Below are positions 35,901 to 62,900 of a stretch of 64,000 bases of DNA, in pieces. Positions within the stretch are counted from its first letter, which is position 1; every line of letters starts with the position of its first letter. Below the pieces are notes generated by a model. That model was given only the letters and a program-made list of their open reading frames with translations. It searched no databases and was not told the origin of the DNA. A program made the position numbers and the translations under genes. The DNA comes from Leucoraja ocellata (taxonomy: Eukaryota), in the NCBI GenBank assembly GCA_036785375.1, contig JAWMAR010000421.1, positions 1,550,001 to 1,614,000 on the forward strand. The letters run 5' to 3'.

Positions 35901-38900
35901 TTGTTTCACCATTGAAACCCAGAGTTGCGGCGAGAGACAAAGACTTGGATTTCTATAGCATCTTTCACATCCTTTGGACATCAAAAAGCATTCTGCAGCC
36001 AGTGAAAACTTTTCAAATGTACTTCATTACAGTAACATATCTGCTTGTGCACAGTCTGATCCCAAACATGATGAGAAGCCAATAGCCAGATCATCTCTTT
36101 TTGTGATGTTGGTCAGAAAGCAGATATTGGAAAGTAGATGAGAACATAGTCGCCCCTCAGTACTGACCAGTTGACCATACAGTACAGCCTCGGTACTGAT
36201 CCTGAGACAGCACTTCATTCTCTCAGGACTGGCCCTGTGACAGTGCATCACACCCTGAGTACTGTTCCTGCAGCTTTATGCCAGGTAGCTCACGGGGTCC
36301 TTCAATCCACCACCACGTGGCTCAGATGTGAGAATGTTATATAGTCTCCAGGTCTTCGAAAATACCACCTGAACAGACAAAACAGAGCTCCTAGACTGAG
36401 GTGACACTATTTGACAGTGCAGTACTCCCTCAGTACTGCTCCTTTGCCAGAATAGCACTCCTTCAGTACTGCTCCTTTGACAGTGCAGTGCATTCTCATA
36501 TTGCCCCTCCAACAGTGCAGTGGTCCCTCAGTCTGCCCCTCCCACAGTGATGAACTTCCCCAATATTGCCCCTTCCTTTTGCCTGACTTCCTCAGTACTG
36601 CCCTTCCTACAGAGCAGCATTCTTTCAGTACTATCCCTCTAACAGTGCATCACTCCCTAAATACTGCCACTCTGACAGTGCGGCACTCCCTCTACTGCCC
36701 CTCCTACAGTGATGCACTCCCCCAGTATGGCCCTCCCACACAGCAGTACTCTGACAGTACAGCACTGCCTCAGTACTTGCCCGCAGACTGTCACCTTCTC
36801 TGAAATTCTCTGGAGTTTACTTGCCCAAGCCCATCCAATTTGTTTTGCATGCTTTTGCTAAAGTCTAGTAATCGGCATCAAATGTGCTATTCCTAATACA
36901 CCTCCTTGTTGCCATCTCAAAATATTTCAATGTATCACTTTCCTTAAGTCACACAATCTGCGGAGTCTGCTGGCTCAAGTAGTATCTAGCAAAGATTATA
37001 TAGGATATTTGGTATCTAGTTTACAGACTTGATCTCTGCATGTACCATTCATGGAGAGGTGAAAGACATCCAGAAAAATCCCACAGAGTCTCCAGACAGA
37101 CAAAGATAGCAACTGAATTGCTTCACAGAATCATTGATTTTAAGCTGTTGGTTGTACAAATAGATCCTCTGAGTGTCAGTTCTTATGATAATACTTGAGC
37201 TGGATGTTAATTGACACAAAATACACCATTGGGAGCGATTTCAGGTTAGTAATTTGAGTGAAAGGCTGCAGATTGTGTCAGAAGGTGGCTTGGCATCAAT
37301 CACACTCAAGAGGCTGTCAATGGATTTCCTGTTGTCCTAACAAGACATCTGCTGTTAAGGCAGAGATGTTTAATCTGCCTCAGAAACATGTTTAAAGACA
37401 AAAGGAACTGCAGATGCTGGTTTACAAAAAACACAAAGTGCAGGAGCCTTCAGGGTTCCCACCCCGAACGTCACCTCTCCATGTCCTCCAGAGCTGCTGC
37501 CTGACCTGCTGAATCACTTCGTAACCTTGTGCTGCAGAAAAATATTTTATGGCTCCAGTATAGGAGCAACATTGGATATGGTGGGGGTGTGGTACATTAG
37601 GAGGATCATGCAGTCATAGAGTTACGCAGCATGGAAACAGGTTGGGTCAACTCATCCACGCCGACCAAGATGCCCCATCTAAGCGAGTCCCTTTTGCCCA
37701 TATTCGACGCATATCCCTCTAAACTTTTCCGATCCATGTACCTGTCCAAATGTCTTTTAAATGTGATTGTAACTGCATCAACAACTTCCTCTGGCAGATC
37801 GCCCCTTATGCTCGCCATGCTTTATGTGGTAGGCAAATGGGACCAAGGTTGTTATTAAATCTTTCTCCTCTCAACTTAACCTATGTCCCCGGCTCTTGAT
37901 TCCCCCACCCTAGGGAAATAGATATTGAACGTTAACTCTGTCCATTCCCTTCATGAACTTGTACTCCCCAATAAGATCACCCCTCAGCCTTCTGCGCTCC
38001 AAGGAATTAAGTCCTAGCCTGCCCTACCGCTCCCTATATCCAGGCCCTCAAGTCCTGGCAACATCTGCGTGAATGTTCTCTGCATACTACAAATCAGTGA
38101 GTTTTGTTTTCCATTTCCATTGTCCAGCAGTACTGAGCCTCCTCACATATTGTCTGGATTTGTTGCAGCCACATCAATACGGATTGATCACTGTGTAATT
38201 ACCCAACTACTTACTCCATTATTGTTGCATCTGATCACCATCAGCGTTACTTAGCAAACTGTACAGTTCAGAGGGAGATTATATAGTCCATCATGTCTGT
38301 ACAAACTCTCAAAAGAACTACCAAATAATCCCTGCAGAACATCTTGTGTCCAGCAAGTTTTTGCTTTATATAGCTATTTCCTTTTAGGTTATTTTGAAAC
38401 TATTTCCTTTCAGGAAAAGCAGTCTAGACAGAGGCAGACATTGATCCCTTTGATAAGAGAACATTTATGTAGCATTATATAACAACCAGGATAGAAAAGT
38501 AAAATGATTCAAGAAAGGAGGCCGTTCAGCCCATTGCTCTCATGCTAGTTCATTGGAAGAGTGTCCATCTCGGCTGATAAACGAGAATAAGAGGAACTTT
38601 GAGCTTTTATCATCTAGCGGTTCCCAGGCTGTTTGAGGCCAACAATTACCTTTGTGGCAAGGTACGGAACAACTAGGCACAAATGTGTGGAGCAACACAT
38701 CACCTCATTACAACGCTGCCATCCTCGCCCTCGCATAGAATTTACACCTGATGGCTGCATTTTGAGATCCTCTCAGGCTAGCAATAAAATTCACACAAAT
38801 ATTAATTGTGCTCATTATAAACCTCATACAGGCAGTATCGGCACTTTAACGGTCCATATGCTGCAGTCATCTTTGCCACCTGTCAGATTGCCCTTGCTGA

Positions 38901-41900
38901 TTCTCAAGAAAATCTCTTTGTTATTTCCTCCGTCCTCCTCTCCCGCGGATCTTGCTTTAAGCCCCATGGCTACCCTTCCAACAACTCTCCCAGTCACAGT
39001 GAAAAGAAAGCTGTTATCTTTATGTGGTTCTGAGCCTATGTGTGACTCACATAAAGGCTCACACCAGCATGATTGACTTTTAACTGAACTGGCCAAGCAA
39101 GCTGACGAAAGACAGCAATGCCCACAACTCCAAAACACAGTTCTTTTTTAAAAAGTCATTTGAATCGCGGTTACTTTTTCAACATGTTTCTGTAATCACA
39201 TGACACACAGTAAGGATGAAGGTTTGCAATTGAGATGGAGATTTGATTGATATCCAGGGTAGAATTTATTCCTTAAGGTCACTCTCACTGTCTTCTTCTG
39301 GAATGTACTTTATTTGCCTGAGTGGCCAATTATTGTGACAAACAAGTCCAGAAAGGCTTTTAGTAACCATGGTAACCAAAGGCCATCAAGGACAGGCCCT
39401 GAAAGTGGGCCTGCCATGGTTTCATAAACAAGTCAAGAGCCTTGCTGACTAAACTATTCAAATCCTTACACGGCTGGAGTGTGATTTTTTGTGACATTTG
39501 TTATGTTTATAAAGAGACTGTGTTTGACGTTGAACTATTGAAGCAAGGATTGAAAAGATTTCAATGAAGTACTTGGGGCAAAAGATTTCAACTGTTTATT
39601 TTGTGCTGTTGGATCCAATGTCCAAAATAATTTAATGGGCCCAGGTGTTTCTCAGCCTCAAGAGGCCTGATGCCCTGGGTCAATTAGCGCAGCAACCATA
39701 GCTGGAATGCCAAGAGCTGGAACAGGAGGAGGCCATTCATCCCTTAAGTCTGTTCTACCATTCAACAAAATTACAGCTGATCCTCTGTCTCCTGCACTTT
39801 CCTGCCCGATCCCCATTTTCAATATTTCCTGAGTCTCCATGAATCTTAACACCCTTGTATCCACAATCATTGAACGGTTGAGCAGACACAGACCCAAATA
39901 ACCTATTATATTTCTTATAATCTCCGTGGTTTAGTGGGCACCACCCTTGCTTCTGAGGTGAAAATTGCACGCTCATGCTCCATTCTCATACATAGAACTA
40001 GGCTGATATTCCAGTGTGTAACTGGAAGGTGCCATTATTTTGACATATCATCTGCCCTTTCAAATGCCTGTGAAAAATCCAATTTTTCAATATGTATTCC
40101 TAAATTATTAAAGGTGATTAACTGGACCCAATTCCTTGAAAAAGACAAGATTGTGCAAAAGAAAATACATGACTGCAAAAACACATTAAGACAAAAAAAG
40201 GTTGATGGCTGTGCAAGTGTGGTCCATAGTGTTCTGTTGCCGAGGTAGGATTAGGGTTGTGCGGGTAGGTTCGAGAAGTTGTTAATTGTAGGAAAGTAAC
40301 TTCCTGAACCTGGTAGTGTGCGACCTCTGGTTTCTGTACTTCCTGCCTCATGTAGTTGGTGAGGAGGTCCGTGCCTGTGATAGACTCTCTACATCACTCT
40401 CTGCAGATTTGTGACAACCTGGTATGGGCAACAAATATAAACTAGACCCAATGCAGTGCCAGGAACAGCATCTCGCAGTTATTGGTGCTGTCAACGTTTG
40501 GCGGAGAACTCTGTTTCTGATGAGATCCCTGCATGCCAGAAAGAATTAGTGGGCAGCAGGCATAATTATTGGTCTTGCATTGGAAATAAGTATCTCGATT
40601 CTAGTTTCTTTAAGAAGATTTAACTTATTTAATATTTGAAGATGATTTGCTCCATCAGCACTAACCTCTGATTCACCGCCAATGGAATATTTCAGGTTGA
40701 AGTTGAGATCTGGGCTTACTGAGAGAAACTGACTACTGGGATTAGTCAATAATTCTGTATGTGAGGATCAGGTACACCTTGTCAATGGACAACAGTCATC
40801 GCATCCAAAAATCTCTTTGGTCCAATGCAATTTCCATTCTCATTTCCCCTATTGGAGATTAGCAACTGAAGCTTTGCCTTTCCCTTCACAATTGCATTTT
40901 TGAACAGTTACAGGAACCTTGCAACAGAACACGAGTCCCTGATGCAGAAATACCTCCACCTTCTGCAGATCGTAGAGACTGAGAAAACAGTCGCAAAACG
41001 ATTGCGGCAGCAAATTGAGGATCAAGAGATTGAAGTTGAGCGACTGAAAGCTGAGGTAGGAGACGATCAAGACTGGGTTGTGGTGACTGGTGCGAGGGAT
41101 GTCACCTCTGTAGGATTATTCTGGGTTACAAGTCAAGAAAATGGGTAGAAGTGGAGAAGGTGTGATTCTTACTGAATTCGGGATATATTTCACTCCCAGT
41201 TACACTGCGGAGAATCCTGTTGGAAGCTGGGAATATTGTATGGAAAAACTTGTGGCTCTTGTTTGTGAGCCCTTGGCTGAGTGACTCCAGTGGTAGTGGA
41301 TCAGGTCATTGAATTCACTTAGCTTTCTTTCTCATTTCTTTTAACAGATTGCTTCACTGCTCAAAAACAATGACCGCATCCAACTAACCGAGCCAGTGAT
41401 GCAGAATGATGAAGATGTTGATATAAGGAAAATCAAGAAGGTAAGACAGATACACGACAAGCCACTGACATATCCTGCAGTAAGACATTTTTGATTTTAT
41501 TGTGACCCACTCCCACATAACATATTCTTCGTAAACAAATAATCTTCTTGACCTTAACCTCCAAGATTCCTTTGCTCCCCAGGTGTCCCCTATTTATGAT
41601 ACATTTTCTTGCCTTGTTTGCCTTCCACAAATATATTGCTTCACACATTTCCAAACTGGATTCCATTTGTCACTTTCCCGCCCTTCTAAGCAGTTCATTG
41701 ATATGTAACTTTCTTCCTTGGGGTTGATTGTCTTTGGTTTGAAACTTTGGTTTCACCTGTAAATTCTTAACTGTGGCACCTACCCTCCAAGTTAAAGTCA
41801 TTGCTGTATCCAACAGGTCCAAAGCTTCCTGCGAGGATGGTTGTGCAGAAGGAAGTGGAAGACCATTATCCAGGACTACATCCGCTCCCCACATGCTGAG

Positions 41901-44900
41901 AGCATGAGGAAGAGGAACCAGGTTGTGTTCAGTATGCTGGAGGCTGAGGCTGAGTATGTCCAGCAGCTCCACATCCTTGTGAACTGCTTCCTCCGACCAC
42001 TCCGCATGGCAGCCAGCTCCAAGAAGCCTCCGATCACCCATGATGATGTTAGCAGCGTATTCCTAAACAGGTATCCAGCAAGAGAATCTAATAAAATAGT
42101 ACTTAGGATGCTGGACCAACAATCATGAAGTTGAGTTCCTATCCCATGCTGGCGGGCGGGTAATTTAAATTTAGATAATGAAATAAATCTGGAATTATTG
42201 TATTGATAGTGGATTATGTTAAAAAGTCATTTGGATCACTAATGTTCAGGCATAGAAACCTTTGACCGTTACCCATTGTGACCTGTATGTGACTCTGGAT
42301 CCACTGCAATATTCCCCCTGAAAATGCTCTGAAGACAGTAAGTTGCACCAAACCGTCATGACTGGTTCCACATTCCCACCAGATTCCCAAAGGAGGAATA
42401 AATGCAGTCTTCCTGTGAAAGATTTACAAAAAAAAGTCATTTTAAGAATTCCATACATACCTATCACCATTGAGTTGTCTATGACTTGGAAGGATGTGAT
42501 CAGAAATGATCAGCAGGATTTTATTGTAAATACACATTCCATTCTCTTTCTTTATACTTACCTTGTTCTCTTTTCCAGTGAAACAATTATGTTTTTGCAC
42601 CAAATATTTTACCAGGGACTAAAAGCTCGAGTCTCCAGCTGGCCGACACTAGTACTAGGTAGGTATCGTGAGTACTTATATCATGAGGCTCCCCATTGGT
42701 AACTCAGGTGTCGTGTTCTTTTGTGCAGATGTGAAAATTATAGTGTTCAATCCGCAATATGCTCTGCTCTCAAGACGGAGCCTTGCCTCTTTAACAGAAC
42801 AGACCAGGATTAGCTTCTTGTGAAGTAAACAAAGCACAGTTCAATCAGAGTTCAGTTGCTCTTCTAGTTTAGTTCCTCAACCAGAGTGAAAGATCTGGCT
42901 GTTTAAAAGGAAGGTGATCAATTGGTGAAAAGGCTGACTGTCAGTATAAAATCAAAGAGCATAAGACGAGCTGGCAGAAAACACAGCGGGTCGAGCAGCA
43001 TCTGTGGAGCAAAGGAATTGTCAAGGTTTCTGGTCGAGACCCTATATCAGGATTCCTTCCCCCACATAGATGCTGCTTGACCAGCTGAGTACCGCCAGCA
43101 GTCTGCTTTTCTTTTTGCAGTTTCCAACATCTACAGTCATTTGTCTAAAAAAAATGAAGAATCCAATTAACAGAATGTTTTTCCAAAAAAAAAGGTTCAG
43201 TTAGTAGAATTCCATGAAATGTTATGTTGGGTCTGCTCCCATTTATTACATATAAAACAATTAAGAATAATTTTGGAATTTGATTATTCTACAATTTTGG
43301 AAATGCTGTAACCTGAATTAGTTTAGTTTAGTTTATTGTCACGTGTATTGAATTATCAAGATTATAGGTGGACAGAACTGCATCAGCAGGTGGGTGCCAT
43401 GTGCAGTTGAATATTGGCAAATGCCAATTAATAGCCCTTTAATCTAAGAGCAGAGGAACAAAATACAAGTTTGTTCAATGTTCACACAAAAGTCCAAAGG
43501 TATCATTGTGTAAAAAGCCCACAAATAAAAATAGCTACCATTTTTGTTTTAGTATCAAGGAAAATAAAATGCAAATGTGAAGAGGTAACACTGAGTGTTT
43601 ATCATATTATAATTAAGCCACAGTGGAAATGCTGTTTTTCAGATTTAGGCACCAAGTATAGAAAGGATGTGTAAACGTAAATCACTGGGATGTTACCAAC
43701 AGTTATTGGGATACATGTGCAATGCAGGGTATTCACTAAAATTGGGAACATTTAGAGAACGGTCTAACCTTTAAGATCACCGTATTATTTACACTGCGTT
43801 ATTTCTGATAAAATCAGAAAATGCTGAAAAATCTCAGCAGGTCAGGCCGCATCAGTGGAAAGAGAAACAAATAATGCTTTAGGTCTGGGATGTAGATTGA
43901 CTGACTGAGATTTTGCAAACAAAGAAGAAAACTTTCACCAAAAAAAAATCACAGGTGGTTAGGAAGGGAAGTAATGTTCTAACACTCTATAACCACAGGC
44001 AGTTAAAATTTAGAATTGTTGGCTACTGACTGTTGATGAATAAAAGTTAGCATTTTCTCGGCAGTTAAGAGTACTACATTGTTAAAGCTTTTGGCTTTCC
44101 AGATAAAATGTTAAATTGAGCCCCAGCTTGCCGTCTTGTGTGGATACAAGCCAGAAGAAATGCAAGAGGTTTCTCCAAGAATTATCCCCAATCGATATTA
44201 CCAAAACAGATTATTGGCCTTCATTTAATTTCATTTGTGGGAACATGCAGCTCATATTGCAGTGTGTTTGCAGCAGTGATTGATTTCCAAAAGCTCTTCA
44301 CGGGCTGCCAGGATCATTTGCAGCTCATGGCAGGCAAGCCTTTGCTTCTATATCCACACAATGAATGAATCTTCCCATCTGTGTGCCAAGTCATAACGTG
44401 AGGTCTGACTTTCCACTGCCAGTCCATGTGTAGTCTTGCAGAAATGTTTAGAGTTGCCCACTACACCAAGTTTTTGACCATGCGTATTCTGAACCATCCC
44501 ACAGCTGACCTGTTCGACATTCTCCTTCCAATGCTGAACATCTATCAGGAGTTTGTAAGGAATCACCAGTATAGTCTACAGATCTTGGCCAGCTGCAAGC
44601 AAAACAGGGACTTTGACAAACTTCTGAAACAATATGAAGCAAAGCCGGATTGTGAAGAGAGGACGCTGGAGACATTCCTGACCTATCCAATGTTTCAGGT
44701 GAAACAGCAGAGCATAGGGGAAGGGTTGGGTGCATGTTGCAGTGATAAAGTCTGGGACCAATTATATGTAGTTGGTATATATAAATATAAATAGACCATT
44801 CCTCAACATTTTCAATAACACAATGTCGTTCTTGTGTCCGATCCCACATTCCGTGTGATCATAGGATTATCCAACTATAGATTGTGTATAGAATGTGGAG

Positions 44901-47900
44901 AAAGTAGAGAATATCTATAACATGTGCAAATGAAAAATGAGGGAATGTTGGTTGGGAAGTAGAGGAACACAGAATAAGCAATGGGGACTTAATAGTCATT
45001 GTTGCAGCTCATTTGATTTTCCAGTGAAGTCTAGTGAGGCAACTGATTCAATATTATCCATTTTACATTATCGTCAATTATCCATTTTATTTCTGTAATC
45101 TTTTGCATATAACAACAAAGTCGGTTTGGTGTCCTATAAAAAGCTGCCTGCAAACAGAGCATCTACTTGTTTGTAATTTGTATTTCCTGACTTTGGCTCC
45201 TTAGATCCCCAGATACATCCTGACTCTCCACGAGTTGTTAGCTCACACACCCCACGAGCACGTGGAGAGGAAGAGTCTGGAGTACGCCAAGTCAAAGCTG
45301 GAGGAACTCTCACGGTGAGTGACGCCATCCAGTGGCCATCTCTGGCATGCAGTGGATGGAACATTCCTTCCACTGATCTGGGCAGCATTTAAAGACTGTG
45401 GCTGAATTAAAGTTTCCCCAACTTTTTATTATAGGGCAACAATCCTCTTTTGAAAATTAATGTCAGCTCACATCCAGCTACTCCATCCTCTGCTTTGTAA
45501 ATTAAACTAGTGTATTGGTATTTGAAACTATTTCTTCAAGTTTGTCTCTTCCAATTTTATCCACATCTTCTCCTCTCCTTCTCCGTTCCCTTTCTTCTGG
45601 AGTCAGTTGTTTTCTCGTCCTGATTACCATGTTCTGGTATCTCACTGATGACACAGTGAGGGTTGAAAATCTACCCCACGAATGAACTATTGAAACTGAG
45701 ACCAGTCTCCTTCCATACGCATATCAGTGTGGGTTGGTGGAAAATGTTTACAGTGCGGAAAACCCTCTTTTTCCCCCCTTCCTGGTTTAGAAGTGCTGCA
45801 CTCACCCACATCGCAGACCATGAGAAAACTTGGATCCACTGAACAAAGATGGACAGTTCTTCCACTGTCCTGCCATAAAGCTGCGTTGCCCGTGTGCACG
45901 GCAATGTGAAACTAACACTGTTTGTGTTTGTCACAGGATAATGCACGATGAAGTGAGTGAAACAGAAAACATTCGCAAGAACTTGGCTATCGAGCGGTTG
46001 ATTGTGGAGGGATGCGAGATTCTCTTGGACACCAGCCAGACGTTTGTACGGCAAGGTAATGGGAGATGGTATTGTTCAGGACTACACTGAGAGCACATGG
46101 CACATGTCAATGACATGCATGATCACTGGTCTGGTATTATATTTCAGAGTGAGGCCCAATACCTTTGGTTCAGTGCACTGGGTTGATGGATTGGTCATTG
46201 CAACACTATGAATTCAATTATTCCTTTGCCATTCACTTGCATTTTCATTGGCAAGTGGACTGTCAGTTGATAAGCTGATTTCAGGCTGTGCTGCTTGAAG
46301 ATATTTGCAATTAGGTGAACTCTGCCAACTTGCAGCCAGTGAAATCCCTGTGATGAGTTGCCACGTCTAAAGAAAATGTCCATGGCATGGTTACATAAAC
46401 TTTAATGATGGTTGAGAGAGAAACATTGACTGAGACACTGAGGGGAACTGTACGGCTCGTCTTCAAAGGCAACCTGGGTTTAATGTCTTATACTCCTTCA
46501 ATAAGATTTTGCATCTGACTCTGGGATACATCACTAAGTTTGATATTCTAGGAGTGAAAAGTTAAGCTGAAAATCCATCTACTTTCTTGTATGGATGTAA
46601 AGAACCAATTTGGGTAGTTACTTAGTTTAGTGTTATTGCCTATAAACGATGTATGGAATTAAATTCCTTGTTTATATGAAGCTCATAGAGTAAATAATAC
46701 ATATACTGTAATGATAGATACAATAAGTACAATGAGGAGTGCAAAACAGAGGAATGGTGCAAGATTATGTTGCAATCGGAAGACGTGTAAAAAATTCTTA
46801 TAAAGTACAATAATGGAATTAACAACCAGCGTAGAGTTAAGTGGAAGTGTACTTGTCACCACCTCTGAGAAATAGGTGTGAACGAGGTGATTGGTTCAGG
46901 AGGCAGATAGCAGTGGGGAAGAAGCTGTTTTTAAGTTTGTACGTCCAGGCTCCTAATATCCCAGAAGGAGAAGAAGGAACAGGGAATGGCCAGATTGGCA
47001 GGCATCCTTGACGAGCAAAGAAATCCTGTGGAATGATCTTTACCAATGGAGTGGACTACAAGTGAACAAAGTGTTCAGTGACACACCGAGTCACATGGCA
47101 GACCGTTGTCTATTGTGCTGTACCTTCAGCAGCTTGCAAGTGGAATTTTAGCATTTTATTTACAGCTACTTTAGAAGGCAGTTCGAAGACTCAGAGCAGC
47201 TAAGGTGGCAATTTTCCTTCCCTAATATACATGAGACAGGTCACAAGAATTCAGTAGTATTGTGACTAATTATACTTAATCAACTGGAATTATTTAATGA
47301 ACTGAGTTTAAAATCACTTAAATTTGCCTTCAAACTCTCATTAGCTGGATTACTAATCTAATATCATAACTGCAATTGCATCATGCTCAATACACAACCA
47401 CTGCAGGTTTTGCTGAGTTGGCAGCTCACATGATATTCTGTTGAGAGCGATATGCTTATCTTTGTTTTACGGTCCACCAGTAACCAGCTGATACTCTCTC
47501 TAACCCAGGATCGCTTATCCAAGTACCCATGACTGAGAAAGGGAAGATTACCCGTGGTCGGTTGGGATCGCTCTCAATGAAAAAGGAGGGAGAGAAGCAA
47601 TGTTTTCTGTTCTCCAAACACTTGATAGTTTGTACCCGAGGATCGGGTGGGAAACTCCACCTAACTAAAGTAGGTGACCAATGCTCATCTGTATGTTCTT
47701 TCATTTCAAAAAATGTAATATGTGCAGAAATGCTGCAGCATTAGCACTCAAATAAGTGATGTACACAGAAAATAAATGTCTTTTTGCCCATCCATCAATG
47801 TGCTAGATTTTTGAAAGAGTTCTCTATTCAATGTCTCTTTTTCCCCAAAGTTCTGCAAATATCCCCTTTCATCAAATTTCCCCATCGAAAGTAGCTATCG

Positions 47901-50900
47901 ATTACCCACTATTGGTCACTTTAAAACAGCATGTGTGCAGAAAAATGCTGTGTAAAAATCCCTCATCTTCCCTCTGGTGGCCAGCCTTCTGTGGAAGCAG
48001 CTTCTCCTCATTGACTCTATCAAAACTCTGTGCTTTTGAAGACCGCTTTTGAATTTCCCCTCCATTTTCTCTACTCTCAGAAGCACAATCCCAGCAACTC
48101 ATCACTCCCCCACATAAGATGAAGTTTTTCGTCCTTGGGCTCACATGAATAAATATCCTCTCCGAGGTCATGATCATGGAAACATTGTTCTGAATGGTGT
48201 AGCCAGTGACAAGGTGAAATGTGTTTTTGGCAATATCTTACTCTAATGTTTCAAATGTGATTTTGAGGAATTCCTCACTCGAGGATCAAAGTCTGAACAT
48301 TGGAAGCAGGCTCAACCTGAGAGGCTGGATATCAGGCTGGGAATCCATCCATCCATGCCCAAATGTTGGAGGAGATTTGATAATCTAGTCACAAGTCTAC
48401 AGTTGAGGCTCAGTTTTAGGATGTTCATTTTAAAATTGATTAACAATGGAATTAAGGGAAGTATTAAAGGCCACATTAATGGAATTACATCACATATCAC
48501 TCAAAATTTACAGTAAGGTCGAACAGGCTTGAGAGAATCAATGGGCTCCTCCTCTAGCATGGTCCTTCAATATAATTTTGTGTCACAAATATAGACCATT
48601 CTCCCACCCACTCAGACATTTCTCTGCTTCCTCACCCCCCCCCATGTGATAATCACTGTGGCTGGTTTTGTTTTTCAGATGCTGTTTGACAGTAAACGAG
48701 TAAGTACATCAGAAGTTGCTCAGGGAATTTGACTCTCGCTCAGTGCCAGGCGGGTGGGAACCTTTCTGGAAGTGAAAGGCTGGGGCTTTAGGTTTAGGTT
48801 AAACCTCCCATCATTTGTACAGGGCAGAATGTACAGGGGTTCAATTCAGGGATCTCCCCATTGCTTTTACCAGTGATCTCACAGGTCCTGGAACTCCTTG
48901 GCCCTGACACAGAATCCCTGTTAATTTATGAAAACTACCACCTCTCTGGGGACCACTGAGGGGATTCTGATCACGGGCACAAGACCCATTAATGCTCCCC
49001 TTGTCAGCCAACAACCAACTGCACTGAGTCATGTGTGCGATGCTGCTCCAGACAAGAGCAGTTGCCCATGGGGAGGTGATCCTTCAATTATTTATGTATA
49101 TAACCTCCTGTTCACTTGGTTCTTGCATCTCCTGTATGACCTCACCATTGATTACCTTTCTTCAACGTATTATGAAAATGTGTCATTTCACACCTTTCTG
49201 TTAATTACCACCAGTGTGTGCCTGGCCATTTCACTAACAATATGTATCATTCCAGGGATGAACAGCTGTGAGAAAGAATGTCATTTATGTTTGTCAAATC
49301 TTGTTTGCCTTTTCAAGTGGTTTTAATTGCTTTACAGAATGGTGTTCTCTCACTCATTGACTGCACCTTGCTGGAGGACCCAGAGACCACAGAAGATGAG
49401 AGTATGTAAAAAGAGTTACAATATAGAATTTGTGTGCAAGTGTGAATGGGCGTGAGCACCTATGAGTGTGAATCTGTGAGAGTGTGTGTATGTGTCAGTG
49501 TGTGTTTATGTCTAAGACTGGGCTTGCACACAACACTCAGCACATGCATTTGTGTTTGCGTGTATCTGTGAGAGGTCCTTGTGTGTGTACTTGCTTCTGT
49601 AAGTTGGCAGGTTAAATCAGTATATCAACTCCTGGAACCAAAGCCTGACCAGTCTAATTCTGTCACTGAACCTCTCACTGAACCCTGGCTTGGTACTGCC
49701 TTGGTGAAAAGAGCCTCAGCACTAAAGGTTAAAGTTGATGCTGAATTTATGCTTTCCACCAAGCTGGAAAGGGTACAAAAAAGATTTACGAGGATGTTGT
49801 CAGGACTAGAGAGTCTGAGCTTTGGAGGGAGGTTGAGTAGACTGGGACTATATTCCTTAGAGCGCAGGAGGATGAGGGGTGATCTTATAGATCATGAGAG
49901 GAATAGATCAGGTAGATGCACAGAGTCTCTTGCCCAGAGTAGGTAAATCGAGAACCAGAGGACATAGGTTTAAGGTGAAGGGGAAAAGATGTACCTGTAG
50001 TAGGAATCTGAGTTTTTCACACAAATGGAGATGGATGTATGAAATAAGCTGCCAGAGGAGGTAGTTGAGGTAGGGACTATCCCAACATTTAAGCAGCAAT
50101 GAGGCAGGCACATGGATAGGATAGGTTTGGAGGGATATGGACCAAATGCTGGTAGCTGGGACATGTTGGCCTGTGTGGGCAAGTTGGGCCGAAGGACCTG
50201 TTTCCACACTGTATCAATCTATGACTCTATGACCAAGAAAGCGTCTCAACTGACAGCCTTTTCTATGGCAGCACGTACATTAAACAACTGCACCGCCATG
50301 ATCTTGTCCATCACGTTCTCCTGATTTTGAGCACCACTGTCCTTCTGGTGAACATGCTCCCACGGTGCTGTTGAGCAGGATGTTCCAGGGCTAGACCCAG
50401 TGATGATGAAGGAACAGTAATGTATTCCCACATCAGGATCATGAGTAGCAAGGCTGGGGGGAGGAGGGGGGTTGGGGGGGGGGGGGGGGGGTTGGTGTGC
50501 CACTGTTGCTGTCAATCTTTTATTTTTAAATCTGCCAGCTCGAGGAGCAGGTCAAGACATGGAACACCTTGATTTCAAACTTGTGGTGGAACCGAAAGAT
50601 ACGCCGTCGTTCACTGTGATTCTGGTGGCCTCGTCACGGCAAGAGAAAGCTGCATGGACTAGTGATATTAGCCAGGTGAGTGAATTCTCATAGAATCATG
50701 TAGACAAAGACTGTTTGACCATTGTGCATGTCCCAATGTGAAAGAGCCTCTCCATTTAATCTCACTCCTCTTGTCCTTTTCCTGGGATTTCTCATTGGTT
50801 CTTGCTCTGGTCCTCACTCCTTTCTTCTTCAAAAGGTTCCTAATCTCCTCCCTCTTTGGCAAAAGTTTAATTTTAGTATCTCCTCATGTAGTTGGTAACA

Positions 50901-53900
50901 AACTGTTTGTTGGTGCTCCTGTGAAGTATCTTGGCTGTTCTACTGTGTTAAAAGTGCATTAATTATTGCTGTATGGCCATAGATAGGTGCTGAATTTTCC
51001 GACAGTAATTTCAGTTCTTAGAGAATACAATTCTTGCTGCAAATATTCAGCGGATCAGGGAGCATCAAAGGAGGGAGAAACAGATTCATATTTCAAGCTT
51101 TTAACTTTTCATCCAGTTGTTCAAAACTTTGCAGGGTTTAAAAAAAAAATCAGGTCTGCAGTTTTTTAATTATTATATACCAAATTATTTCTCTCTCTCC
51201 AGTGCATAGATAATATTCGATGCAATGGTCTGATGATGAATGCATTTGAAGAAAACTCCAAAGTCACAGTTCCACAGATGATTAAGTAAGTGATAATCCA
51301 CTGCAAGTCGACTCAACTCACAGAAGCAATTGTGTGCAGAGGAAGTGTCTCTTTAATGCAATCAGAATTTGGTCACATAGTGGCTAAGTTACTGGGCTAG
51401 AAATCTGCAAACATAAAAACATAATGCTGTTCAGGGAAGGAAATCTGTTCATCTTATCTATTATGGCCCCATGACTCCATTGCATTGAATCCATGACAGG
51501 TTCTGGATGCGTCTTAACTACCTTTGACATGCCTTACCAAGCACTCTGCTCTCACATCACCTTCTCATGGCAATTAGGGATGGAGAACGATTGATAGCCT
51601 TGCTAGCAAAACTTACATCCCATTATTGAATTTTTTAAAAACACTCCCAAACAACAAAAAGTAGAACTTGACCTATCTCTGTTATGTAGCTCCATTTCTA
51701 TCTGCTGTGGGATAGACATTATCCTATAATGTACTGGCTAAGAAGTTCCTTTTGTTATTGGGGCTGAAGCTGTCAAATACTGTACGCCTGCTACAGGGAG
51801 CTTGAGACTATACCCTTAACTTATGACAAGTCTGGTCAGTAGTCTGATAAGAGCATTGAAGAAACTGTTCCTTAGTCTGGTGTTACTTGCTTTCAAAGTT
51901 TTGTATCTTCTGCCCGACGGGGGACGAGAGAAGAGGGTGTGTAAAAGGTCCTTGATTTTGTTGGCTGCTTTCCCGAGGCAATGTGAAGTGCAGATGGAGT
52001 TTGCTTTGTAGGATGGACTGGGCCTCATCTACAACTTTCTTCAATTTCATGCTGACTTGTGAAATTCTGTTTCAAAACCAAGTTGCGATGCATCCCAATA
52101 GGATGCTGTCTGCCGAGCATCCATAGAGGTTGGTAAGAAACGTTGGAAACATGCAAAACTTCCTTAGTCTTCTAAGAATATAGAGGCATTGCGGTGCTTT
52201 CTTGGCTGTAGCTTCAATGTAGTTGGTTCAGGACAAATTGTTGGTGATTCATACCACTAGGAACTTGAATCTGTTGACCATATACATTTCAGCACCATTG
52301 ATGATGATTAGGACTTGTAAATTACTCTGTTTTTTTTAAAACAATAACTAACCTTAATTTTTCTGACATTGAGAGGGGTTGGCTTGACACCATGTTACTA
52401 TGCTCTCTTTCTTCTCTTGTTCTCCGTTTTTGCCATGGTTTGAAATCTGGCCAACTATGGTGGTGTCATCTGCAAACTCGTAAATGGAGTTAGAGCAAAA
52501 TTTGGCCACACAATTGTGAGTGTATAGGGAGTGTAGCAGGGGCTGAGAACAAATCCTTGCAGAGCACCAGTAAAATTACCAACAAGGTTGTTTTGTAGCC
52601 GATCTTCCCTGATCGTAGTCTATCGGTCAGGAATCGAAGATCCAGTGGTAGAGGGTTGTACTAACTCCTAGATCTATGTGTTTGGTACTACAATCTTCTG
52701 CCACTAAATATTAGGAAAGGTGAGTGTTTGCATCCTCTTGAGCTGTTAAGCCAATTGATGATATTATGATTGTTCTATTACACCTTACCTGCAGAATTTC
52801 TACCTTTCACCTATATCGCACCAACGTTGATTATCTATCAGTCTCAGACTTAAAATTAACAATTGATCTGGCATCAATTGCCATTTACAATCTGCATCTT
52901 AACTGTCTCAGCTCGATATCCATTGAAATCACATACTGTACTGTATGTACAAAATCTGCCAAACATTATCTGGAAATTTACCAGAAACGACATTGTCTGC
53001 ATTCCAAATGACAGTCCACCTTTTCCTGATTGTGATTCTCATTGTTGTCATTGTAACTGGCAGGTCTGACACCAGCCTTTACTGTGATGATGTGGATATA
53101 AGATTCAGCAAAACCCTCAACTCCTGCAAAGTTCTCCAGATTCGCTATGCAACCGTGGAGCGTCTATTGGAGCGCCTGACTGACCTGCGCTTCTTAAGTA
53201 TAGACTTCCTCAACACGTTCCTGCATTCATATCGGGTTTTCACCACAGCCGAAGTGGTGCTGGACAAGCTCATCACCATTTACAAGAAGCCAATAAGTGC
53301 GATACCTGCAAGGTGATGTCTCTCTGTGTCCATGTTTTGGTGTGATACATTTAAACCTACTGTACAAGCATATGTCATGTGGAAAGAATGAGTCCAATCA
53401 TATGCATAATGATGTCAGTAATATGTTCATACAAAATTCTTCACATTGTTTACAGAATTGAAATCATTGAGTTCTTGTTCTAATGAGAGCGTTTCCACAA
53501 TTAATTTTGAATGAGGCAGATTTGCAACACTGTCAATAATTCAATAATTCCTTCCAACATTTTCTCCCAAAAACACATAAAAATCAATAACCATAGTGTG
53601 TTTAGATTGCCTGAAAGGGATAATAATGAAGAGAGTAACTCTCAGCAAAGTGTGTTTGATTTCACAGTCTGCCCTAATCGTTTAATGATGCTTATAGTTA
53701 AATAAATGGAGCAATTATACATCAATCATCCTATTAACACTAGATTTCCTCTCAAATGTAGGTCACTTGAACTCTTTCTTGCAAGCAGCCAAAATAATAA
53801 ACTTATGTACAGGGAGCCCCCAAAATCCCCACGAGCGAGTCGGAAATTTTCCTCCCCACCGCCCCTTTCTATTTCTAAGACGTCGTCACCAATTCGGAGG

Positions 53901-56900
53901 AGGAAGCTTTCCCTGAATATTCCCATTATCACGGGGGGAAAGGCCCTGGACCTTGCCACCATGACTTGCTCATCCAATGGCTATGCAAGCATGTACTCCT
54001 CGCCGTCCCCCTTCAGCAAGACCAGCCTGGATATCAACAAGCTGTACGTGTCCAGCACCTATTCCAACAAACTCTCCGATGAGCAAGAAGCCAAATCAGA
54101 CAAAGCCGAAGATTCTGGTCCCAGTAAAGGAGGTGAGTTGCGAGAACACTTCAAAAGCCAGTAGAGTTAAATGGTGAATGGTCAGGAAAAGAATCATTCT
54201 ACAACTCATGTCTTGGTGCCAGGGTTCTCAAGATGAAGCTGCTGTTGGTTTGGACAACACTTAGTGCTTGTCCCTAATTATGTTTGAGAATATGAAAGTG
54301 CTTCTCCCTGAACCTTGCAGTCTGTACTGTTCAAGGGAAGACACTACCCTCCTACTTAATGACAATGCGTAAATGGCAGCAATGGTGAGAGGGTGCGTGA
54401 GTTTTCCTTTGCACTTAACGTACAATGATAGGAAATATTTAATTGATATTAGTCATTGTGTACATCAGTTACTATTGAAAAATGGGCACTTCGCACTTTA
54501 CCTGGGAGCTTGGGGCTTTGACATATATATGTCCGGTATCTTGATTAGTTGATCCACTACTAGTAAAGGTGATGGCGTTTATGTGAGTAAGGCTAGTGTG
54601 GACAAAAAGGCTTATTTACTGTAGGCTGACTGCTTCTCATGTCAGCTATTGTAGTCAGGCCCCTTTCAGGCCAAGAAACACAGTCCTTCACTGAAATCGA
54701 CACTGAGAGGCCAATTATTTCATGCAGCCCCCCATTGAAAGAGAAAGTATTCCAGGTGACGATATGCATGGATTGAACGCACTCCAGACATATAATGAAT
54801 TTCTCATTTTGCAAGTAGGTGCAGCCAGGACAGTCAAGGAGGATTCCGAGATTGAGCAAGGCTTCAGTGATGAGGCTGAGACAGAAACATCACCGACAAA
54901 ATCTCCAACGTCTCCAAAAAAACTAAAATCAAAGAACTCCTCAGGTACGTAGTAAAGAACCAGGTGTCAACTCACGATAAGATCAAACAATCTCCTTCAA
55001 CCGGGGAACTTTGCGTCTCTGTTACCTTTTCCCGACTCTGTAACTTGTTTCGGATTCCTGTCTCTGTAATCTCTTTAGTCCCAACAGTCCTTGGAAAACT
55101 GTAACCACCTCTAACCTCTGCAACTCTCCAACACAGCATGGCCACCTCCATCCACAACAATCATATCATTTACACCACCTTCAGCCCTGACACTCTGAGA
55201 CCACTGCATTCTTCCATGTCTAGCTTTTTGTATTTATTCATTAATAGCCCCCTAGGTCCCAATATCTGGAATTCTCAAGCTTTTCCTCCTTTTAAAAGCA
55301 ACCATTGTGTTACCTGCCCCACTATCACCTTATGCAAGTGTCTAATTTTGTTTGATAATATTACAATAAATGTGTTCAGATGCACTTTCTCCAACTCAAA
55401 GATTTGTTACAATACATTTTCAGAAGGTTGTATTTCTTGTCTGACTAGTCTGCTCTACAGACATACATTTTAGGTAGAATCTTTCATGTCTTTTGTTTGT
55501 TTCTTTTTTGAAAATTCTACTCTTACTTTAATTGTCTCATTATTCTGTTTTATCAAGAATAATATAACTCATCATTATATAGCGGTTGTATTTCATACAG
55601 AAAAATAAAACTATTAATGCAGAGAATTTGGGGATATTGAAGGAATCAAGGGATATAGATGATTGCAAGAAAGTGTACACTGGAACAACTGCTATTAGCT
55701 TGTTGAATGGTGAAAGGCACGAGGGGCTAAATGGCTTTCTTCTGCTTTTAGCTTTTATATTCCCATTTTCTCACAAATGGCTTTCTAGAGAATGATATAC
55801 ACTATAGTATACATAAGTTGGCACAGCCAGTATAAGTTGAAATATATAACAAGCTAGTGATTGAAATAGCCAGGAGTTGTGGATTACCTGTGACCTTCTT
55901 TGACTCTGCAGAGTTCCCCTTGTTTTCCTACAATAACGGAGTGGTAGTCACCTCCAGTCGGGAGATGGAGAACAATCGTAGTGCACTGTCAGCGACCTCA
56001 GCATTTGCCATTGCGACGGCTGGTGCCAACGAGGGCACTCCCACCAAGGAGAAGTTCAGGAGAATGTCCCTGGCCAGCGCAGGTACCCTTTATTTTGGCA
56101 CGTGGGATCGGATTTCTTAATGAATCTTTATTAATAAAGTCCCCTGTTAATTGATTCTAGTCATAATAGTTACTCTAATAATCAGCAGAAGGCAGTTTCA
56201 AAGATTAATCAATGATGAAATTGTATTTCTGCCTGTTTTTACTATTAATGTAGTTAATGTATTTTCAGTGAAATCATGCTTTATTGGTGCTAGATTCGTA
56301 TGAAATATCAAAAAGGAGGCATGAGGTCCCTTGTGTCTGCCTCAGCTCTTTTAAAGAGCATTATATTGGGATCAGATCAATAAATAGCTAAACGTTCTTG
56401 ATTGTAAGTGAGGAATATAAATGACGCATTACATTCTCTTATGAACAATATTCTAAATTAGCGCAGATGATGATGAGTTGGCAGTGGTAACAGAGTGATA
56501 GTTGATGGTTAGCGAGGATCCACATAACACCACAATAGAGAACAGAGTTGAATTGATTTATGTCACAATGTAAGGTGGCCAGTAGCGAGACTGAGAGCCA
56601 ATAGAAATAAAAAAACTGGNNNNNNNNNNNNNNNNNNNNNNNNNNNNNNNNNNNNNNNNNNNNNNNNNNNNNNNNNNNNNNNNNNNNNNNNNNNNNNNNN
56701 NNNNNNNNNNNNNNNNNNNNNNNNNNNNNNNNNNNNNNNNNNNNNNNNNNNNNNNNNNNNNNNNNNNNNNNNNNNNNNNNNNNNNNNNNNNNNNNNNNNN
56801 NNNNNNNNNNNNNNNNNNNNNNNNNNNNNNNNNNNNNNNNNNNNNNNCTTAAAGGGGCAGGAACCAAAGCTGGAAATAGTTTTCGTATTTAATGTGAGAG

Positions 56901-59900
56901 AAATACATTTGTGCAGAATCACATGTTCCAAATGCACATTACAGCATGGTTGTACACTGCTGCTGAAATTCAGTTCCACTTATTTCACTGGTGAATTTTG
57001 AAAGTAGCTGCTGGTGTATGCATGTGGAGCACATATGAATGAGGACCTATTTCGACCCACTTGCTTAACTTTAACGGACCCTAGATAGACAGTGAAGGAA
57101 TCAAAGGATATGGAGTTAGTGACACAGAAGTAAAAAAACAGCCATGATCTTACTGAATGATAGGGAATCATGATTGTGATTATTATATTCTTATCTCGCT
57201 GAAATTTGGTGCGAGATAGTGAACCTGTTTGGGCACAAAATTGCAAATGTGATTTGTTCTTGGCATAATTTTCTGACTGTTGGCATAATTAAACAAGCTC
57301 AAACATGCTAGGTTTCGGATTCCTGTGTTAAGTTCACAGCTTGCATCTACCAGACACAACAGGGCAGAGCCTCACGATGGGCCCCAACTTTAAAAGTTCC
57401 TCTTTCACTCAAACGTCACTACAGCTGTTCACTTCAGAAACCCCCCAAACCCAAACCAGCTCTCTCTTCCTCTTTCGGCATGCTGGGGCTGAAACACTAT
57501 CGTTGTGAGCAAACCTTCTCCCAACAGAAACCACTGCACATGGCCTACGTGGTGAAAGATAGCTCAGCACAGATTACTCGAGGGTGGCACAGTGGCACTG
57601 CAGTGGATTTACTTCCTACTTCGCCAGAGACCTGGGTTTAAACCTGACTACAGGTGCTGTCTGTGCGGAGTTTGCATGTTCTCGCTGTGACCTCATGAGT
57701 TTTCTGCAGTTGCTCTGGCTTTCTCCCACATTCCAAAGATGTGCAGGTTTGTAGGTTAATTAGCTTCTGTAAATTATACCTAGTGTGTAGGATAGAACTA
57801 GTGTATGAGGGATCATTGATTGTGTGGACTCGGGGGGCTGAAGGGCCTGTTTTCCACGCTGTATCTCCCAACTAAACTAAACAGTGTAAATTGTTGCATG
57901 TGGCCTAGCACTGCAACCCGAGCTAAGCTACAGTTGCATTATCATTTTCATAACTAAGACAAGTCTAACATAGATAGTCAGGTTCTGTCAGACTCAAGTT
58001 GGTAGGCCAAGCTCCAGTGTGAGAGAGGGAGAGATATAATCAAATGCTTAGTCGTCAGCTCCCAATAGATGATGTGCCGAGGTGGTGTCTGATGTTCACT
58101 ATTATTTCTGAATACATTTTTGCATTGATTCCAGGCTTTCCTGCTGATCAGAGAATTTGTGACAAAGAATTTGTCATTCGAAGAGCAGCTACAAATCGTG
58201 TGCTCAACGTGTTGAGGCATTGGGTCTCAAAGCATTCCCAGGTAGTGCTTAGCTTCAATGTTCGTATCCAATGGAACTTGATGTGCGTAAAAGAGGGTCG
58301 TGTCCTCCTGGTTTGATTCAAATGTGGTTCATATATTACCGAGTAGGTCCACTACAGGTATTATTTCCATAAACCTTGTGATCGGTTCTTTGGAATGTTA
58401 TTATTCCACTGTTCCATGCTGTTAAACAAGGTGTATCAGAGGATTATCTCATACTGTGGTTTCATTGATCCGAGGTACAATCTTGGCTTGCCTTACAAGC
58501 TGCATTGGATCAGATAAGATGCAATCACTGAACAGATGACAGAGGTTCCCCTTCTCTGCTGTGGCCACTGTCAGGAACCAGTCAAGAGCATTTGATTTAA
58601 GTGTTTGGGAAATGATAAAGGCAGAAGAGTTTAATTGCACGCCTGGTATCCTGGTGTGCGATCGTCCAACTGCACAGGAGTATAACATTCCAATGTGGGT
58701 ACCACGGGACAAGGGAAGCCATTCACAGTCTCTGCTCCTCCTCTGCAAAGCGCTGCAGTAGGATATTTCTCATTCACAGACAATGAAATACTTTTAAAGT
58801 CTAGATACTGTCGCAGTATGAGAAATAAACTCACCAATTTGCATATGTTACAATAGGTATACTTCATAATATGCACAGTTTTCTTGTTTTCCTTACATTC
58901 ATTTTACCATCAATCCTATACGCTCTCTTACAATGTGTCCATGCCAGTCATGTTTCTTCCTTAAACAGTGTAGCTGTGGAGCCTTTGAAAGGCTGTTACA
59001 CAAACACAGCACCCCAGTGGCAGCTGGGCCCTCCACAGAGCCTTCATGGTGTCTGCATGGAGGCTCAGCACATACCCTTGCACCCTGGTATGTACCAGTT
59101 AGCAGAATCTGCTTATGGACATTTCACCCTGGAAGTTCAATCGGTTTCAAGCAGACCAAAGTGTGTCTTTCACCAAGTTAATTATTTTCCAGAGGCGATT
59201 TATGTTATCTCATTGTGCATTCCTGCAGACAACCCATGGATCACAAAGTCCTCTGGTACACAGCTGATCACGGCAAACCTCAGCAGGAAACACTACAGCA
59301 TATCCCAGACTTTCTCTCGGAAGAAACAGTACAGGAATGGCAGCGTATTTCTCAAAATTGTTTTCCTTGGCATCAATAACCATGTTAGATGCAGGAAGAT
59401 TGTTCCCGATGTTGGGGAAGTCCAGGACAAGGGGTCACAGCTTAAGGATAAAGGGGAAATCCTTTAAAACCGAGATGAGAAGAACTTTTTTCACGCAGAG
59501 TGGTGAATCTCTGGAACTCTCTGCCACAGAGGGTAGTTGAGGCCAGTTCATTGGCTATATTTAAGAGGGAGTTAGATGTGGCCCTTGTGGCTAAGTGGAT
59601 CAGGGGGTATGGAGAGAAGGCAGGTACGGGATACTGAGTTGGATGATCAGCCATGATCATATTGAATGGCGGTGCAGGCTCGAAGGGCCGAATGGCCTAC
59701 TCCTGCACCTAATTTCTATGTTTCTATGTTTCTAATAACCATGTAGGACTCACAGCCACCCGTTTGGGTTAAAGTATCCCGGACACAAATTGTAAAATAT
59801 CCCACTGCGGCAGAAATTAATTCATCAATCTACCACAAAAAATAGATTGACATAATTTGCTTCATTTATACATAGAAACATAGAAAATAGGTGCCATTCG

Positions 59901-62900
59901 GCCCTTCGAGCCTGCACCGCCATTCAATATGATCATGGCTGATCATCCAACTCAGTATCCTGTACCTGCCTTCTCTCCATACCCCCTGATCCCTTTAGCC
60001 ACAAGGGCCACATCTAACTCCCTCTTAAATATAGCCAATGAACTGGCCTCAACTACCTTCTGTGGCAGAGAATTCCAGAGATTCACCACTCTCTGTGTGA
60101 AAAATGTTTTCCTCATCTCGGTCCTAAACGATTTCCCCCTTATCCTTAAACTGTGACCCCTTGTTCTGGACTTCCCCAACATCGGGAACAATCTTCCTGC
60201 ATCTAGCCTGTCCAACCCCTTAAGAATTTTGTAAGTTTCTATAAGATCCCCCCTCAATCTTCTAAATTCTAGCGAGTACAAACCGAGTCTATCCAGTGTT
60301 TCTTCATATGAAAGTCCTGACATCCCAGGAATCAGTCTGGTGAACCTTCTCTGTACTCCCTCTATGGCAAGAATGTCTTTCCTCAGATTAGAAGACCAAA
60401 ACTGAACGCAATACTCTAGGTGTGGGCTCACCAAGACCCTGTACAACTGCAGTAGAACCTCCCTGCTCCTATACTCAAATCCTTTTGCTATGAATGCTAA
60501 CATACCATTCGCCTTCTTCACTGCCTGCTGCACCTGCATGCCTACTTTTAATGACTGGTGTACCATGACACCCAGGTCTTGTTGCATCTCCCCCTTTCCT
60601 AATCGGCCACCATTCAGATAATAGTCTACTTTCCTGTTTTTGCCACCAAAGTGGATAACCTCACATTTATCCACATTATACTGCATCTGCCATGCATTTG
60701 CCCACTCGCCCAGCCTATCCAAGTCACCTTGCAGCCTCCTAGCATCCTCCACACAGCTAACACTGCCCCCCAGCTTTGTGTCATCCGCAAACTTGGAGAT
60801 GTTGCCTTCAATTCCCTCGTCCAAATCATTAATATATATTGTAAATAGCTGGGGTCCCAGCACTGAGCCTTGCGGTACCCCGCAGAGATATATGAGATCT
60901 TTGTTCATCCAGTTAGACTATTAGGATTGTCACACAATAAAAACAGTGACTACATTTTAAAGAATGGCTGAAGTCCATTTGGGTCATTCCTGAAATGTGA
61001 AAGGTGCTTTATAATGTCAGCCATCCCTCCATACGATGCATATGGTACATGATGGGAAATTTAGCCACAGTTTTTGTAATTGGAGTCCCAGAAATATTAA
61101 ATGTTAATTGTTCTTCATCTATAGGATTTTGAAGCAAACATCGAGTTAAAAACCAAAGTGATTGTTTTTCTGGAGGAAGTTATTCATGACCCTGAATTGC
61201 TAACTCAAGAGAGGAAAGCAGCAGCTAACATCATCAGGCAAGTTCTCCTAAGCAGGATTTTACTCCAACAAAACGATGAAATCGTAATGCGGATTACTTA
61301 ATGGAAGGGATACTTCTTCAGGGTGAACCAGGTGATATTCCACAGAACCTGCAATTTGGAAACTGACCATTTGGCATCTGGTTCCTGCAGGTGTTCCTGT
61401 TCCTCCTTAAACACCCCCTGCCAATCCTTGTCTCTTTCCCCACCACCATACCCTTTATTTTATTGGTAATTTGTTTACCTAGATTCCTCTTAAATCCATT
61501 TTGATTATTGATTTCAACCATTGTGGAAATGGGTGGCTTGTCGTGATTGTGTCTGACTCCACCACCCAAGCTGCCACAACTCCAGCAAGTACAAGTTGGT
61601 GGAGCTGAGCATCATTGGTGTGAGTACAGGTATCAGGTCAATGGACGTCTATCCATAGGGGAAATAAATGTGTTTTAATGAAGCTCTTGCTGGATTTTGT
61701 ACTTGTATCTCTGTGCTAAATGTACTTCCTCGTCCACCCACTCAGTATTTTAAAGACTTGCCATCTTCCTGTGTTTAATAACACAGCATTTCCAATTTCT
61801 AGGACACTGAATGAAGGCGACCCAGGATATTACCAAATCCCTATGGAAGAGATTATGAGCACGGTTGGTATCATTGTTTCTCTCCGCTTTGAGGGTTTCT
61901 GTGCTTTACAACCTTTATATTAAAATTCCATCTTTTTTTCCTCCTCTTTGAAAAGACGGAAGCAGAGACTTTTGAGAATCTTTCTGCCCTGGAGATAGCT
62001 GAAGAGTTGACTTTGTTGGACCACCTGGTCTTTGGGTGCATTCCATATGAGTAAGTCACTTCCTTCTTTTTAGACTTCCTTCATGTCAGTACAGAGGTGG
62101 CTGATGAGGCTTCTGTGGGATCTGCAGATTATGCTTCAGGTGTTTGACAGGGCAGTTGGTTGGGTAGTATGGGAGATGTGTACTCCTTCATTGGTGTGTT
62201 TGGCTTCCCTTTGCGCCCTACAAAGAGACACCGAGTGCTCAGTGCCTTCCTGAATGCTCCTTCAACATGCATATCAGTCATGAGACAAGGATTCCCAGGA
62301 GTCAGTGTGGATGTTGTATTTTTCCAAGAACATCCTTGAAGCATTTTTGTAGTCTAGTTACTCTCTTACTGTGATAGAATATGAGGTAGAGGGCATGTTC
62401 TGAGTACGTAAACAAAATGACTTGGTGATGAAACTTCCAAACCTTGATGTTGGGATCATTGCACTGGGGGAAGTTCAGAATCGGCTTGCCTATCATCTAA
62501 TGGACTAAGAAGATTTTGCAGAGGTAGAGCTGGAGGTACCTCTCCAGTGCTTTGTGGTCAGATGTACTAGGCATAAAGGAGGGTGGAGGCCAATGCTGCA
62601 CTGTGGATCATGAACATGGTGGTATGTTTGTGGGTGTTGATCTTCAAACACTCTTTTCTTCGGATGACCTAAAGCTTGTTGGTATACTAGCGAGCTGAAG
62701 ACTAATTCATGTAGTTTATTGGTCCTTTTGGCCCATCTGGATTATACTCTTGATCGGGCTCTAGAGATGGCCTTTAATTTCTCTTTTCTCTTAACAGCTA
62801 CAAGCACCTTCTCTGCTCCATCCTAAAAATGGTGTTTGCAATTTAAATATCTCTATTGATTTATCTCTCAATCTCCCCTTATCTAAAGAGACATTTCCAC

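Follow-up and report, generated by a model that had tools for sequence, protein, structure and literature searches.

The RASGRF1 gene of the skate Leucoraja ocellata contains a microexon of 21 nt, encoding the heptapeptide MLFDSKR, that is spliced into the mRNA. It was found in a stretch of 64,000 nt from the genome assembly (positions 1,550,001 to 1,614,000 of contig JAWMAR010000421.1), which I will call the window and from whose first letter all positions are counted. On the evidence laid out below, I consider it rather probable that the exon originated in an ancestor of the chondrichthyans, is of the neural type, enters most transcripts of the gene, and splits strand beta4 of the second PH domain (PH2) around a new surface loop, which would tune the DH-PH2 region of the protein.

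The exon was proposed in an initial annotation made from the letters alone, which called, within 48640..48705, an AG, 21 nt encoding MLFDSKR and the donor GTAAGT, seven codons in phase 0/0. The sequence is exactly as described there: the acceptor AG lies at 48677-48678, GTAAGT begins at 48700, and the 21 nt between them are free of stop codons. The reading frame is kept, since exon 10 ends in phase 0, the next exon starts at 49338, and the insert is 21 nt long. Table 1 collects the features of the region, as placed by an exon model of the window that was built against a skate protein of the database.

Table 1. Features of the RASGRF1 microexon and its surroundings in the window.
Feature	Positions	Strand	Basis
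RASGRF1 coding region in the window, 23 exons including the microexon; the gene continues beyond the window end	14655..63086	+	tblastn, exon model
Coding exon 10, 5' of the microexon (encodes PH2 strands 1-3 and the first part of strand 4)	47509..47669	+	exon model; read depth, junction
Intron 5' of the microexon, 1009 nt, GT..AG	47670..48678	+	RNA junction reads
Distal pyrimidine tract; within it the sole TGC 5' of the exon (48625-48627) and, at 48634, the A of the best yUnAy candidate for a branch point	48619..48643	+	sequence; roles putative
3' splice site (CAG) with the T-rich tract before it	48666..48678	+	used in junction 47669>48679
Microexon, 21 nt, MLFDSKR, phase 0/0, 11th coding exon of RASGRF1	48679..48699	+	sequence; junction reads on both sides; identical peptide in 15 chondrichthyan proteins (7 species)
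5' splice site GTAAGT	48700..48705	+	used in junction 48699>49338
Intron 3' of the microexon, 638 nt, GT..AG	48700..49337	+	RNA junction reads
Next coding exon (number 11 in bony vertebrates)	49338..49401	+	exon model; junction, loose read ends

The motif alone could not have carried the claim. A strict scan for AG..GTRAGW on both strands of the 64 kb returned 10 candidates of 3-51 nt, of which three are no longer than 27 nt: the MLFDSKR exon is the one on the + strand, and neither of the two on the - strand is a multiple of three. A looser scan of the RASGRF1 span returned six in-frame, stop-free candidates of 27 nt or less. Comparable pairs of motifs are thus not very rare, so that the motif for a 21-nt exon is suggestive rather than decisive, and it is RNA that decides. 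By the (small) leave-one-out matrices made from the gene itself, the acceptor scores 5.1, in the middle ranks of the gene's own 22 acceptors, and the donor scores 7.5, rank 11 of 22 donors, with the consensus GTAAGT on the intronic side and an A at the exonic position -1.

Four of 12 raw RNA runs, their tissues not indicated, were mapped to the region 47400-49500, and two of them (X12 and X15) gave real coverage. The other two are uninformative as to inclusion, X6 having no reads on RASGRF1 exons and X8 a depth of about 1 on exon 10. Both junctions that the initial annotation had put forward for an RNA-seq check appear at precisely the predicted positions: 47669>48679 in nine reads of X12 and four of X15, and 48699>49338 in 12 and six reads, respectively. 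Both are of the GT..AG type, and their strand fits a transcript from the + strand if the libraries were stranded in the usual way. Run X15 also contains reads with loose ends, three carrying the letters of exon 10 before 48679 and four carrying those of the microexon before 49338. The 21 nt between AG and GT are therefore spliced at both ends with the frame preserved, as is expected of a microexon. The junction that would skip it, 47669>49338, is not listed in X12 or X15 (threshold of three reads, low depth, four runs mapped). Since junctions are listed only from three reads upwards, as many as two skipping reads per run could be hidden, and inclusion therefore amounts to at least about 84% in X12 and about 71% in X15.

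Other sources of the seven residues were considered. An insert produced by a shift of donor or acceptor, taking in 21 nt from either end of the intron, was rejected, no such junction being listed at the locus. A scan of the whole window against Rfam gave no matches. As to an origin from a repeat, a region of 201 bp around the exon matched only the two copies of the gene in the assembly (C421 and C79), in a search that skips very common words.

The identity of the host gene is clear. The protein modelled from the window shares 1044 of its 1046 residues with Leucoraja erinacea XP_055517338.1, 1038 with the protein of Amblyraja radiata and 972 with that of Scyliorhinus canicula, which by itself marks the animal as a skate, either the little skate or a species very close to it. 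Pfam recognizes PH, RhoGEF, RasGEF_N and RasGEF domains in XP_055517338.1, and the order of domains is PH1, DH, PH2, REM, CDC25, with the closest match to RASGRF1 rather than RASGRF2. A separate RASGRF2-like locus is found on contig C10, with 70% identity in exon 10.

The assembly contains a second copy of RASGRF1, on contig C79, collinear with that of the window (C421) at 97-99% over the approximately 43 kb sampled and with an identical microexon. I rejected the idea that it is a paralogue, as collinearity at this level resembles a second haplotype. RASGRF2 likewise occurs twice (C10:4731894-4732052 and C10:4784143-4784301, 52 kb apart on one contig, with about 97-99% identity), which makes the two copies of RASGRF1 look like haplotypes in one assembly. 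The duplicates of both genes, compared by sequence, are thus probably uncollapsed haplotypes. The C421 and C79 copies show no differences at 48636-48715, a stretch too short to count as evidence of conservation. Some peculiarities of the locus were seen in passing. The exon at 61125-61237 has a GC donor in the exon model (GCAAGT, 61238-61243). Near 54816-54819, RefSeq isoforms of skates and Narcine differ by one residue at an exon junction, suggesting a shift of the acceptor by 3 nt. Finally, repeated elements of about 190-360 bp at 59386-60046 and 63518-63906 in C421 are missing from C79 or lie elsewhere in it, which suggests recent polymorphic insertions.

The distribution of the peptide is narrow. 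MLFDSKR occurs exactly in 15 of the 42 proteins spanning the junction that are labelled as chondrichthyan RASGRF1, and in none of 171 other RASGRF1 proteins, in keeping with the initial annotation, to which no such insert was known from mammalian RASGRF1. The exon is conserved in other chondrichthyans, protein models from chimaera to skates carrying the identical peptide. The species are seven of the 18 chondrichthyans represented: Callorhinchus milii, Scyliorhinus canicula, S. torazame, Leucoraja erinacea, Amblyraja radiata, Rhinoraja longicauda and Narcine bancroftii. The heptapeptide is identical even though the exons of the window match the whole proteins of chimaera and catshark at only about 85-90%. 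No model bearing the insert was found for the other 11 species (five carpet sharks, two Mobula, Hypanus, Mustelus, Heptranchias and Pristiophorus). The main cluster of shark and ray proteins was examined in 15 of its 23 members, and representatives of clusters can hide isoforms. All three models of Leucoraja, all four of Narcine and both of S. canicula include the insert. C. milii has two models with it and eight without, and because one species holds both kinds of model, absence from a model can be a matter of annotation.

Searches by sequence gave the same picture. With the 41 residues around the insert as query, 974 proteins were matched, and among the best 120 of them only five reach 70 bits or more, all chondrichthyan; the next below, at 51 bits, is an armadillo protein with an unrelated insert of eight residues. 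Ten search matches were inspected for shorter proteins with the insert, and none has it, P0243 and P0244 being read-throughs of an intron. In three read-through proteins of the bird type, the whole intron amounts to about 37 codons, too short to accommodate a microexon plus two introns. The insert is absent from all three models of coelacanth RASGRF1 and from all three hagfish RasGRF proteins. The homologous RASGRF2 intron of the same genome, 3.2 kb long, contains no candidate, its best match being 18/35, within the range of shuffled sequence (17-21).

Since the 171 other RASGRF1 proteins, the hagfish RasGRF and the RASGRF2 intron offer no counterpart, a gain on the chondrichthyan stem is the simplest reading. 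Judged from these sequences, the microexon is most likely a chondrichthyan gain, its time of origin being inferred from a comparison in which no gar, bichir, sturgeon or lungfish sequence was identified. Where the initial annotation had left the choice between a lineage-specific and an ancestral exon, the former fits better.

Three sets of protein models deserve separate mention. All the models seen from carpet sharks (five species) and myliobatiform rays (three species) are without the insert (P0121, P0063, P0072, P0070, P0081, P0060 and P0139; P0122, P0129, P0130 and P0131), as would follow either from loss throughout these clades or from annotation poor in brain RNA. Models X1 of Mustelus asterias (P0138) and Heptranchias perlo (P0142) have, at the same junction, a different insert of seven residues that ends in Q. 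It resembles a translation of the last 21 nt of the intron (49317-49337) and may represent an extension at the acceptor or a model compensating for a microexon it could not place. Two proteins labelled as RASGRF1 of Lampetra planeri (P0098 and P0253) cluster at 90% with teleost proteins. The label or the source is therefore doubtful, and they were excluded as evidence from a lamprey.

To see where the insert might lie in the folded protein, AlphaFold2 models, from alignments of 38 rows, were compared for the little skate protein P0124, which includes the heptapeptide (inclusion form), and the Hypanus protein P0130, which lacks it (skip form); the two proteins come from different species and are 94% identical. 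In the skip form, a strand of PH2 (442-451) runs without interruption over the junction between the exons. The inclusion form has two strands (510-512 and 524-526) flanking the insert, which occupies a loop (515-521, pLDDT about 71), and the other strands of PH2 are in place. The insert is thus predicted to split strand beta4 of PH2 in its middle. The strands are named as is usual for PH domains, and a profile alignment to SOS1 supports the region as beta3-beta4/beta4. The initial annotation was right in placing the exon in PH2, but the predicted site is inside a strand and not in a loop already present. Searches of the PDB by sequence and by fold found no solved RasGRF DH-PH2 structure and no close match to this unit, only distant DH-PH structures (SOS1, p115-RhoGEF, Ephexin4 and P-Rex1), and they provided no residue-level map of the insert onto a GTPase interface; no contact is therefore asserted.

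By these models, the exon would add to PH2 a short surface loop, hydrophobic in its first part (MLF) and continuing with DSKR. Such a loop would most likely alter contacts of PH2 with the DH domain or with partners. Through the changed packing of PH2, it might then affect Rac exchange or the degree to which Ras exchange is autoinhibited, with Ras catalysis itself a less plausible target. In PMC12227644, removal of PH1 plus DH is reported to raise Ras activation, and an N-terminal restraint on Ras exchange is reported for RASGRF1, where autoinhibition is a matter of debate.

Neural control of the exon has been approached through what is described for its class. According to 10.1101/2024.09.17.613571, microexons dependent on SRRM3/4 are 3-27 nt long, with strong donors and with a branch point and pyrimidine tract some way upstream of the AG; in 74-79% of them UGC lies between branch point and AG, though it is not strictly required. 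The upstream pyrimidine stretch with TGC (tctctgcttc) that the initial annotation pointed to does exist. Its TGC (position -54 from the exon) is the only one within 120 nt upstream, and a long pyrimidine tract extends from -60 to -36. The sole yUnAy branch candidate, however, has its A at -45, leaving the TGC upstream of it, outside the stretch that runs from there to the AG. The argument from UGC is therefore weak, although a branch point lying further upstream, if used, would bring the TGC inside that stretch. The assembly contains genes with the SRRM_C domain (PF15230; three matches over the cut-off, two of them nearly identical).

In several respects the skate exon looks like an SRRM3/4 neural microexon: its length of 21 nt, a multiple of three, its GTAAGT donor, a long pyrimidine tract at some distance from the AG, deep conservation, and a neuronal host gene. 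It departs from that class in having no UGC in the interval from the best branch point to the AG, in not extending from shark to mammal but being confined to chondrichthyans, and in having been seen only included, in runs of unindicated tissue. RasGRFs are described as mainly neuronal, with GEF activity towards both Ras and Rac (PMC4388020). By analogy with the class and given the host gene, I lean towards neural inclusion assisted by SRRM3/4, which would be the probable mode of regulation as it is for most conserved vertebrate exons of 3-27 nt.

The exon may instead be constitutive wherever it is present, a fixed extension of PH2 by seven residues in chondrichthyans that happens to be encoded in a very small exon, one that neither undergoes regulated skipping nor depends on SRRM3/4. 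I regard this as a real if lesser possibility. It would account for RNA in which only inclusion junctions appear, for the models of Leucoraja, Narcine and S. canicula, every one of which includes the exon, for a canonical interval devoid of UGC, and for splice sites that score in the middle of the range for RASGRF1. The eight insert-free models of C. milii beside two with the insert speak against it, allowing that the eight may be annotation misses, as does the skip form, which is predicted to fold with its strand intact. Also to be set against it is the largely neuronal character of RASGRF1 itself (PMC4388020), and for the same reason neural-specific and constitutive inclusion look alike in the present RNA data. 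Since no skipped transcript appeared in the RNA, it is the database models without the insert that alone give the exon its alternative status.

It is improbable that the exon was already present in the ancestor of jawed vertebrates and has been lost, or has gone unannotated, in bony vertebrates. Annotation often misses microexons, and a cluster shown by one representative could conceal members with the insert. Models of a spider and an annelid have inserts at the same junction (considered below), consistent with a position that is old and tolerant; those inserts, however, bear no evident likeness to MLFDSKR. None of the 171 other RASGRF1 proteins, three coelacanth models included, has the exon, nor do hagfish RasGRF and skate RASGRF2. 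The least credible reading is that of a cryptic or noisy splice product, free of selected function, from a chance pair of AG and GTAAGT. Chance pairs of such motifs do arise about once per 64-kb strand, but inclusion is the only class of junction seen, and no residue of the peptide varies between chimaera and skates. Dominant inclusion and identity of the peptide across orders refute it. The preferred reading is still that of a spliced neural-type microexon of chondrichthyan origin.

The inserts in invertebrates come from a set of distant RasGRF representatives, 28 of 142 of which cover the junction region of PH2. In the spider Oedothorax gibbosus (P0287, P0423 and P0424), 14 extra residues stand at the junction in two of three annotated isoforms and are absent from the third, and in the annelid Dimorphilus gyrociliatus (P0378 and P0425) there are about 17 at the same junction. 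That neural exons are gained repeatedly in the same genes has been reported (10.64898/2026.09.05.749416). A broader reading, which I consider distinctly doubtful, would make the phase-0 junction in beta4 of PH2 a hotspot of exon gain, with independent additions of seven residues in chondrichthyans, 14 in the spider and about 17 in the annelid. The chondrichthyan exon would then have been lost in carpet sharks and the relatives of stingrays, and would act, without need of UGC, as a neural microexon by which the DH-PH2 autoinhibition or the Rac exchange of a synaptic activator of Ras and Rac is reset. If this were true, it would provide a natural on/off series for testing the control of RasGRF1 by PH2.

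The exon is already annotated in automated RefSeq models from several chondrichthyans: L. erinacea XP_055517338.1, S. canicula XP_038669379.1 and C. milii XP_042199039.1 have the same heptapeptide at the same junction of the same gene. No publication describing the exon, how it is regulated or what it does was found; the supplements of 10.64898/2026.09.05.749416 and of 10.1101/2024.09.17.613571, comparative studies that both include elephant shark, may list it, as may VastDB. Two systems invite comparison. The diglycine/triglycine microexon of cytohesins (PMC10586773) also lies inside the PH domain of a GEF, but it adds a single glycine, switches the preference between PIP3 and PIP2 and is documented in both forms, whereas the RASGRF1 exon adds seven residues, predicted to lie in beta4. 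TRIO GEF2 (PMC12309612) offers a precedent in which the beta3-beta4 region of a DH-linked PH domain controls exchange, by autoinhibition. The TRIO loop, however, is constitutive and precedes beta4, whereas the RASGRF1 insert is predicted to come a few residues later, within beta4, so the likeness is one of analogy only.

The importance of the exon is limited in that its class is well known, it is already present in RefSeq, and its function is putative. It is nonetheless a lineage-restricted microexon in a well-studied protein of synaptic signalling, and it adds a case to the less-studied vertebrate microexons that are not shared with mammals. Chimaeras and elasmobranchs separated roughly 400 million years ago. 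Perfect conservation of the peptide across that split points to selection, so that the pair of forms with and without the seven residues is a ready natural variant for probing PH2.
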